This document shows, piece after piece, positions 18,861-20,357 of a DNA stretch of 64,000 bases. The DNA is from Candidatus Parcubacteria bacterium (lineage in GTDB: Bacteria > Patescibacteriota > Minisyncoccia > Minisyncoccales > JAGMDC01), in the NCBI GenBank assembly GCA_023131895.1, contig JAGLYZ010000002.1:176474-240473 (forward strand). The letters are read 5' to 3'. Made by a program: the position numbers and the translations under genes. The notes below the pieces were generated by a model. It made no database searches. It was not told the origin of the DNA and saw only the letters and a program-made list of their open reading frames with translations. Every line of letters starts with the position of its first letter. Position 1 is the stretch's first letter.

Positions 18861-20357
<1,497 letters not shown>

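Follow-up and report, generated by a model that had tools for sequence, protein, structure and literature searches.

The stretch of DNA analysed here (64,000 nt, hereafter the window; GC content 33%) contains a full-length bacterial 16S rRNA gene on its minus strand, which matches Rfam RF00177 over model positions 1-1533 with 1438.7 bits. No further rRNA was detected by Rfam within the 64-kb window. Downstream of the 16S gene there are neither spacer tRNAs nor a 23S gene, and an alaS-like gene is located 160 nt away (region 16929-20357), so that the rRNA genes of this genome are unlinked. The coordinates of these and the other features are compiled in Table 1.

Table 1. Features of the window; positions are counted from its first nucleotide.
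Feature	Position	Strand	Basis or remark
16S rRNA gene	18861..20357	-	Rfam RF00177
Helix 45, CACGCGUAGC-GGAA-GCUGUGCGUG, GGAA loop intact	18874..18897	-	cmscan alignment, every pair canonical
Conserved GAUCA, which precedes the anti-SD in other bacteria	18869..18873	-	sequence and alignment
Tail UUACAUUU at the model positions of CCUCCUUU (missing anti-SD)	18861..18868	-	alignment
Processing stem, 3' half, CGGGACAACUCU (CGGGACAACTCT)	18768..18779	-	complementary to 20365-20376
Processing stem, 5' half, AGAGUUGUCCCG (AGAGTTGTCCCG), just 5' of the mature rRNA	20365..20376	-	pairs with 18779-18768
Likely rrs promoter, TTGACA-17 nt-TACAAT	20434..20462	-	putative, read from sequence
tRNA-Thr	21016-21086		tRNA gene
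alaS-like gene	16929-18701	-	Pfam tRNA-synt_2c
TAAAAT, preceded by TGA, 6 nt upstream of the alaS-like ATG	18708..18713	-	example of a -10 box at -12
AGGAGG upstream of a hypothetical 110-aa gene (10991-11323), ~6 nt from its ATG	10975..10990	+	SD-like site
SD-like site before a geranylgeranyl-reductase-like flavoprotein gene (4579-5790)	5802-5807		(A)GGAGG
SD-like site before a hypothetical gene (7718-8416)	8429-8434		(A)GGAGG
Class A array, ending 5 nt before the tuf ATG	48251-48330 (to 48393 at widest)	-	z = -3.7
Class A array before uL5	40646-40730 (to 40781 at widest)	-	palindromic units
Class A array before uS8	39800-39894	-	palindromic units
Class A array before uL6	39318-39409	-	palindromic units
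Class A array before rpoA	13469-13569	-	palindromic units
Class A array before uS11	14666-14755	-	palindromic units
Class A array before bL25	27547-27638	-	palindromic units
Class A array before holB-like gene	1959-2042	-	palindromic units
Class A array before adenylate-kinase-like gene	58569-58601	-	palindromic units
Class B array, then UUGAGCGAUAGCGAAC and the AUG of uS3	42962-43068	-	z = -4.5
Class B array before uS19	43909-44018	-	palindromic units
Class B array before secY	37307-37457	-	palindromic units
Class B array before mreB, spacer divergent	3093-3220	-	palindromic units
Class B array before the 144-aa ORF 21134-21568, spacer divergent	21569-21704	-	palindromic units
Class B array before M50 peptidase gene	53434-53522	-	palindromic units

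The 3' end of the 16S gene reads GUAACAAGGCACGCGUAGC-GGAA-GCUGUGCGUG-GAUCA-UUACAUUU on the minus strand and is followed by UAAAAGUGUUGAC. Its terminus is GGAUCA-UUACAUUU, where the consensus is GGAUCA-CCUCCUUU (minus strand 18880..18861 = GUGCGUGGAUCAUUACAUUU). In the covariance-model alignment, GGAUCAUUACAUUU is aligned to the consensus GGAUcACCUCCUUu with full posterior probability, and the five positions of the anti-Shine-Dalgarno (anti-SD) core CCUCC are UUACA. The first-pass annotation, which had described a tail lacking CCUCC behind an intact helix 45, is borne out on both points, all pairs of the helix being canonical in the alignment. Past the tail, an A/U-rich single-stranded run (UAAAAG) extends up to 18855. 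Neither CCTCC nor GGAGG was found within 150 nt past GATCA, in agreement with the earlier view that the motif is not merely displaced. The flanking processing stem proposed there is also real, 18779-18768 pairing with 20376-20365, and its GGGACAAC(T) core was found again in most of the relatives' 3' flanks examined. The likely rrs promoter suggests that a standard sigma-70-type consensus is in use here. Taken by its features, the rrs locus appears to be an intact, expressed-looking gene and no decayed copy. We infer the position of the mature 3' end of the rRNA from the sequence.

It had also been remarked that the terminal bases equal the 3' end of eukaryotic 18S rRNA. The nine bases GGAUCAUUA are indeed the same as the 3' terminus of eukaryotic (yeast) 18S rRNA, but the gene is a bacterial SSU according to Rfam, and only UUA lies beyond the universal GGAUCA. 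Because the match extends only 3 nt beyond GGAUCA and the A/U-rich tails of the relatives vary, we read the likeness as a coincidence of AT drift and not as homology.

The altered tail among relatives

A scaffold from an ENA metagenome equals the window over 14,130 bp (6929-21058), tail included. When the tail was aligned with the 16S genes of close relatives, as had been proposed, it was identical in L001, L046 and L093, the latter two being representatives of two other GTDB species. In both L046 (a Minisyncoccales MAG) and L093, UUACAUUUUAAAAGUGUUGAC occurs exactly as in the window, and their 16S sequences are ~96-97% identical to that of the window in the alignable parts. Helix 45 of L093 shows a compensatory C-G to U-A change (CAUG..CAUG variant), which argues for a functional rRNA. 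These two are the nearest 16S sequences among the matches listed and place the window within the CPR/Parcubacteria (Minisyncoccia). In addition, the window 16S has the 515F-site variant GUGCCAGAAGCGUCGGUAA, which is presumably typical of CPR. The organism is evidently a Minisyncoccales bacterium (Patescibacteria/CPR, former Parcubacteria).

One genome per GTDB species was then scanned for AAGTCGTAACAAGG-N10-GGAA-N10-GATCA followed by two non-C bases, and at least 120 stretches with non-C at the first two CCUCC positions of 16S were obtained. Most among the matches listed are labelled as Patescibacteria or their subgroups (Paceibacterota, Minisyncoccales, Staskawiczbacteria, Nealsonbacteria, 'Saccharibacteria' and similar). 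The cultured Minisyncoccus archaeiphilus (L017, complete genome), whose 16S is ~80% identical to that of the window, is among the matches listed. The remaining matches listed are ~76-83% identical to the window 16S, indicating that the loss of the anti-SD spans deep divergence. Among the matches listed, the other relatives' tails include AUUAAACUA in more than 20 loci, and also UUUAUUU, UUUUUUU, AUUCCAAUU and AUUAUUUU. A displaced anti-SD is rejected: in the 150 nt that follow GAUCA, CCTCC occurs in 7 of 121 sequences (the window plus 120 relatives among the matches listed) and is no more frequent than GGAGG (11 of 121). The loss of the anti-SD is a clade-wide trait of a large part of Parcubacteria/Minisyncoccia.

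The data come from one 64-kb window of a metagenome-assembled genome, which might leave room for a misassembled or mutated 3' end, a pseudogene, or another rrs copy with CCUCC. We give such an artefact hardly any credence: the Rfam match is full-length with a canonical helix 45, the 5'/3' processing stem and the promoter are intact at rrs, the same tail recurs in independent species together with a compensatory change in helix 45, the loss is clade-wide and includes the complete genome of a cultured strain, and the core genes are without SD motifs.

Several further observations concern the 16S genes of the relatives. A diverse sister group (L002, L012-L014, L032, L047, L050, L053, L062, L080, L083, L087, L094, L095, L098, L101, L104, L107, L118 and L119), whose 16S genes have a median identity of 75% in their final 460 nt, retains GAUCA-AUUAAACU without change, and divergence starts directly past this conserved tail. 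Exact retention with immediate divergence afterwards suggests a mature tail of ~13-14 nt in this group, and likewise suggests purifying selection on the replaced, non-SD-pairing tail. Meanwhile, the 16S genes of L046 and L093 contain an insertion of ~680-800 nt at the same site (window 16S position ~1030), which the window gene does not have. The 3' spacer of L093 has a 38-nt insertion ~75-115 nt past GATCA, which folds into a UCCUCC…GGAGGA hairpin immediately ahead of the processing stem. No other CCUCC occurs close to the end of a 16S gene in this genus, and this one probably lies outside the mature rRNA.

These results agree with previous studies. Tsurumaki et al. (2022, RNA 28:1041, PMC9297842) detected CCTCCT, the anti-SD motif, in no more than 48% of Parcubacteria; the lineages without it, where SD helices presumably do not form, coincide largely with those that lack uL1. 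Campbellbacteria and Wolfebacteria are without the CCUCC core and SD-scarce (2024 PLoS One survey, PMC10783764). The window shares with the anti-SD-less Parcubacteria (PMC9297842) the phylum-level group, the loss of CCUCC(U) after GAUCA, so that CCTCCT is absent from the 16S 3' end, and the absence of SD motifs. Nothing essential differs; it is a further species with its own tail UUACAUUUU, common to two other species. The rplK-rplA region, to which the uL1 gene belongs, lies outside the window. Era, the assembly GTPase that recognises GAUCACCUCC, is missing from most CPR (PMC10582724, PMC12641178), and its loss would remove one constraint on the CCUCC sequence.

The first-pass annotation had called such a loss very rare. 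This is correct across bacteria overall, where Amin et al. (2018, PMC6107228) counted 20,495 taxids with a perfect CCUCCU and 128 that convincingly have no consensus anti-SD, the latter clustered in Flavobacteriia, Mycoplasma and endosymbionts. However, the window is not an oddity in its own lineage, given the at least 120 stretches above and the published CPR cases; the loss is rare across bacteria, and common and documented in CPR. Flavobacteriia (Chryseobacterium, Elizabethkingia, Riemerella, Blattabacterium), some Mycoplasma and insect endosymbionts (Carsonella among others) are also without an anti-SD (Lim et al. 2012; PMC6107228). They resemble the present case in an intact helix 45, no CCUCC, no complementary upstream motif and a phylogenetically clustered loss, but they belong to unrelated phyla, and the losses are independent. 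In Bacteroidota, SD-independent initiation came before the loss of the anti-SD, and their upstream regions are A-rich with no sharp -10 peak.

Shine-Dalgarno usage at start codons

A canonical SD/anti-SD system would have CCUCC directly after GAUCA, where UUACA stands, and an enrichment of GGAGG-type motifs 5-10 nt before the starts of core genes, which was not observed. In the window, GGAGG is absent before tuf, rpoA, secY, mreB, the alaS-like gene, ~25 ribosomal-protein genes and a murA-type EPSP-synthase-family gene. Such a signal before core genes had been named as evidence that would overturn the idea; we looked for it in the window and in the relatives' operons and found none. The duplex of the canonical tail with positions -25..-4 of the 68 window ORFs has a mean energy of -2.6 kcal/mol compared with -3.8 kcal/mol in coding controls, and pairing at or below -6 kcal/mol occurs in 9% of window upstream regions compared with 20% of coding-sequence controls, a comparison that is conservative because the coding strand is purine-rich. 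Against distal-intergenic controls, a small residual SD-like signal is seen (6 of 49 versus 0 of 49; three TTACA-tail loci), mainly at accessory genes.

The same holds for the relatives, whose ribosomal-protein operons were taken from metagenomic loci with uS8 50-73% identical to that of the window; no relative with more than 73% uS8 identity was found among JGI metagenome contigs. In the operons of more than 70 AT-rich metagenomic relatives, an SD-like tetramer lies in the SD window of 30 of the 709 starts (~4%). By the same crude method, one high-GC relative that uses SD, with AAGGAGG before uS8, gave 8 of 17 (47%), which indicates that the method has power.

About 5 of the 68 window genes, accessory genes only, have an SD-like motif. 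The AGGAGG before the 110-aa gene (Table 1) lies downstream of TTGACA-17-TATAAT, and this gene adjoins a Cas4-like nuclease, a stand-alone PD-(D/E)XK protein encoded at 10219-10893. A weaker GGAG/GGGA match precedes the nucleotidyltransferase of an MNT/HEPN pair; the pair itself (54590-55436) consists of a HepT-like (HEPN) ribonuclease and an MNT nucleotidyltransferase and represents a toxin-antitoxin system. A minority of genes also keep a strong (A)GGAGG in L017, L069, L099 and L108, some at canonical SD spacing. In anti-SD-less genomes, such motifs could possibly reflect recent acquisition, chance or another role.

Since the anti-SD is absent and not displaced, and the start regions are without SD, initiation in this organism, as judged from its genes, must be SD-independent. 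The expectation that mRNA initiation is changed here is accordingly upheld.

Signals and hairpin arrays before start codons

Of the 68 window genes, 14 have a hexamer of the form TAnnnT whose first base is precisely at -12, so that 6 nt separate it from the start codon (background 2-3 per position); among the genes next to the 16S of other anti-SD-less species, the count is 65 of 478 (background ~17). These hexamers belong to the sigma-70 -10 family (TAAAAT, TATAAT, TAATAT, TATTAT, TAGTAT), which is the same across clades with different 16S tails, and TGn precedes 24% of them compared with 8% of the same hexamers elsewhere (~3-fold; 9 of 19 in the window). The recognised sequence signature of leaderless mRNAs is a -10 box whose end lies 6-7 nt ahead of the AUG, and the peak at -12 places such an element at a fixed distance from the start codon. 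For instance, the box before the alaS-like gene suggests that the mRNA of this gene may be leaderless. The peak is only ~2-fold inside the relatives' ribosomal-protein operons, TAnnnT is common in a genome of 33% GC, and the leaderless reading rests on DNA motifs. ATG is the called start in 62 of the 68 window genes, which adds little to this reading because the start caller prefers ATG. A generic -35/-10 promoter scan of 36000-49000 returned 44 sites against 41.0 ± 7.2 in shuffles and is uninformative because the DNA is AT-rich. We infer that the -12 hexamers are active promoters and that the transcripts start at the AUG.

Genes are also closely packed. Gaps of at most 5 nt occur at 14 of the 68 window genes, with recurrent UAAUAUG and AUGA overlaps, and gaps of at most 15 nt at 398 of the 709 genes in the relatives' ribosomal-protein operons, a spacing that would fit termination-reinitiation coupling.

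A literature search on leaderless initiation in Patescibacteria found nothing on the mechanism. Leaderless-dominated initiation, as in Mycobacterium, Deinococcus and Haloferax (PMC4633059, PMC3986360), is similar in the TAnnnT hexamer ~6-7 nt before the start and in the predominance of AUG. Those organisms, by contrast, retain an anti-SD that serves their other genes, and in the window it is missing. The likeness of the window to leaderless-dominated organisms is one of sequence signature alone.

Many intergenic regions of the window are imperfect palindromes built of ~8-nt units, which fall into two classes. Class A is (CAUUUUAA)n-loop-(UUAAAAUG)n, also (AACAUnnU)n / (UGUUAAAA)n, or (CATTTTAA)n…(TTAAAATG)n as DNA. 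Class B is (AAGUUAAA)n-loop-(UUUUAACU)n followed by UUGAGCGAWAGCGAAC, or (AAGTTAAA)n…(TTTTAACT)n as DNA. Arrays of both classes end 4-13 nt before the start codons of core genes (Table 1). The right arm of class A reads as tandem extended -10 boxes (TGnTAAAAT) at the right distance from the ATG, and most copies of class B have a conserved TTGAGCGAWAGCGAAC spacer (GCGAAGCGAA) between the palindrome and the ATG. Ahead of the array of tuf, ~95 nt upstream of the gene, the promoter scan picked up a good TTGACT-16-TATTAT promoter (48345-48372, minus strand), so that a leadered tuf mRNA including the array may be made as well. GAAAAATYTGTTTTCTTCGC is a third intergenic motif present in several copies; these lie at 12290-12339, 16864-16928 and 37361-37435, upstream of uL13, the 412-aa ORF 15625-16863 and secY, respectively, and the secY copy belongs to an inverted pair.

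Among the relatives (loci L122-L196, ribosomal-protein operons of metagenomic Paceibacteria), 40 of the 120 gaps of 45-100 nt have z < -3, and the stem base of the strongest hairpins lies mostly 6-11 nt before the next ATG. Their arrays consist of lineage-specific short tandem units that are unrelated to those of the window (ACGAAUU, CACAGAU, CUAAUAU). The metagenomic locus L158 has a class-A-like array before uS8, and the distant locus L190 has an array of class B type with GAGCGAAGCGAAT before the uS8 ATG. Other relatives separate stop and start at the same junctions by just a few A-rich bases. The orthologous uS14-uS8 junction is free of an array in many relatives, where the two genes are simply coupled, which suggests that the arrays are dispensable insertions; they look like tolerated or mobile ones. 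As the right arm of class A supplies TGnTAAAAT, such an insertion could be harmless or could serve as a terminator-promoter module. The literature search on intergenic inverted repeats of CPR found nothing relevant.

We consider the following explanation the best overall, with a probability of about 0.7. The lineage has lost the CCUCC core of the anti-SD, with a drifting A/U-rich linker in its place, and the 16S gene here is the presumably single-copy-type rrs of a Minisyncoccales bacterium. Its ribosomes are unable to form the SD helix, and the genes have correspondingly lost their SD motifs. Most likely, first cistrons would be transcribed from -10 boxes of the sigma-70 type, many of them extended by TGn, that lie ~6 nt from the AUG; their mRNAs would be leaderless or nearly so, and the ribosome would recognise the 5'-terminal AUG. 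Downstream cistrons would depend on tight termination-reinitiation coupling through UAAUAUG, AUGA overlaps and gaps of at most 5 nt. Points against this explanation are the class B arrays, which have no -10 box at -12, the canonical promoter upstream of tuf, which would give a leadered mRNA, and the minority of genes in anti-SD-less lineages that keep a strong GGAGG at SD spacing; the last can be accommodated only if such sites were acquired recently or arose by chance.

As a mechanism, its main rival is structure-guided or processing-based initiation on leadered or polycistronic mRNAs, in which the hairpin arrays would present or insulate the start site or process it, and the -10-like boxes would be incidental. 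By this model, an array might draw the start codon close to the preceding stop codon, act as an RNase III-type processing site, or hold the surroundings of the AUG free of pairing. At least 15 genes of the window have an array in front of them, among them tuf, rpoA, secY and seven genes for ribosomal proteins; most of these arrays fold better than shuffles (z -3 to -6), and the same architecture with unrelated unit sequences occurs in the relatives' ribosomal operons. The canonical promoter upstream of the tuf array points in this direction too, as does class B, which is without a -12 box yet has the conserved GAGCGAWAGCGAA spacer, also in L190. However, many relatives lack the array at the uS14-uS8 junction, mismatches between the arms are not biased to G-U on the sense strand, and the stability of two of six folds does not exceed that of shuffles (z = -0.7 to -0.8). 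Moreover, the arrays fill the whole gap, so that their closeness to the ATG is partly forced. On balance, we regard this mechanism as unlikely.

Far less probable is a co-evolved alternative SD, by which the system would be re-coded and not lost: the tail (…UUACAUUUUAA…) would pair with UUAAAAUGU/UAAAAUG units 5-8 nt before start codons, involving highly expressed genes with class A arrays. The 9-mer UUAAAAUGU of the class A right arms is exactly complementary to ACAUUUUAA (tail plus extension), it is repeated just before tuf, uL5, uS8, uL6 and rpoA, and the spacing between unit and AUG is SD-like. In addition, the window's own 19-nt tail pairs at or below -6 kcal/mol in 13% of upstream regions compared with 6% of coding controls. 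However, the duplexes reach only ~-2 to -3 kcal/mol, and when six tail types were compared over six gene groups, the own tail was no better in duplex energy than those of other clades. The longest exact match to the own upstream regions is 6.66 nt for own tails and 6.41 nt for foreign ones. The complementarity of the 9-mer was rejected as evidence because 46% of foreign tails equal it on the upstream set of the window. Half of the -12 hexamers (TAGTAT, TATAAT, TATTAT, TAATAT) are unable to pair with AUUUUA, L046 and L093 use TATAAT despite having the same tail, and for such pairing the length of the mature 3' end would have to exceed that in E. coli by at least 2-3 nt. Neither a motif specific to the own tail nor covariation of motif and tail across clades was observed. 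Organisms without an anti-SD are also without SD motifs, and a variant SD matching a variant anti-SD was found in no organism (Amin et al. 2018, PMC6107228).

Returning to leaderless initiation with coupled downstream cistrons, a bolder and rather doubtful extension is that the ribosomal-protein operons are broken into gene-by-gene modules, in which arrays of ~8-nt units would act as a terminator plus an extended -10 promoter 5-8 nt before the AUG, so that core mRNAs would be leaderless. If this were true, operon architecture would have been rebuilt around the loss of SD in anti-SD-less Minisyncoccales, and the lineage-specific units of the relatives would mean that the arrays are repeatedly reinvented or mobile.

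Significance of the loss

The SD/anti-SD helix is the textbook route of bacterial ribosomes to start codons. The loss of the anti-SD in the window is real, lineage-typical and already published, and the window is a well-documented further example of a loss that is itself already known. Complete loss of SD across a large, abundant and mostly uncultured radiation means that SD-based gene finders and expression tools misbehave there. The Parcubacteria papers on the anti-SD do not state what replaces SD (PMC9297842, PMC10783764), and the -12 peak, the tight coupling and the start-proximal hairpin arrays make this question more concrete. In the anti-SD-less lineages, another initiation route carries the whole proteome; as Minisyncoccus archaeiphilus is now cultured, the mechanism that replaces SD is open to experiment.
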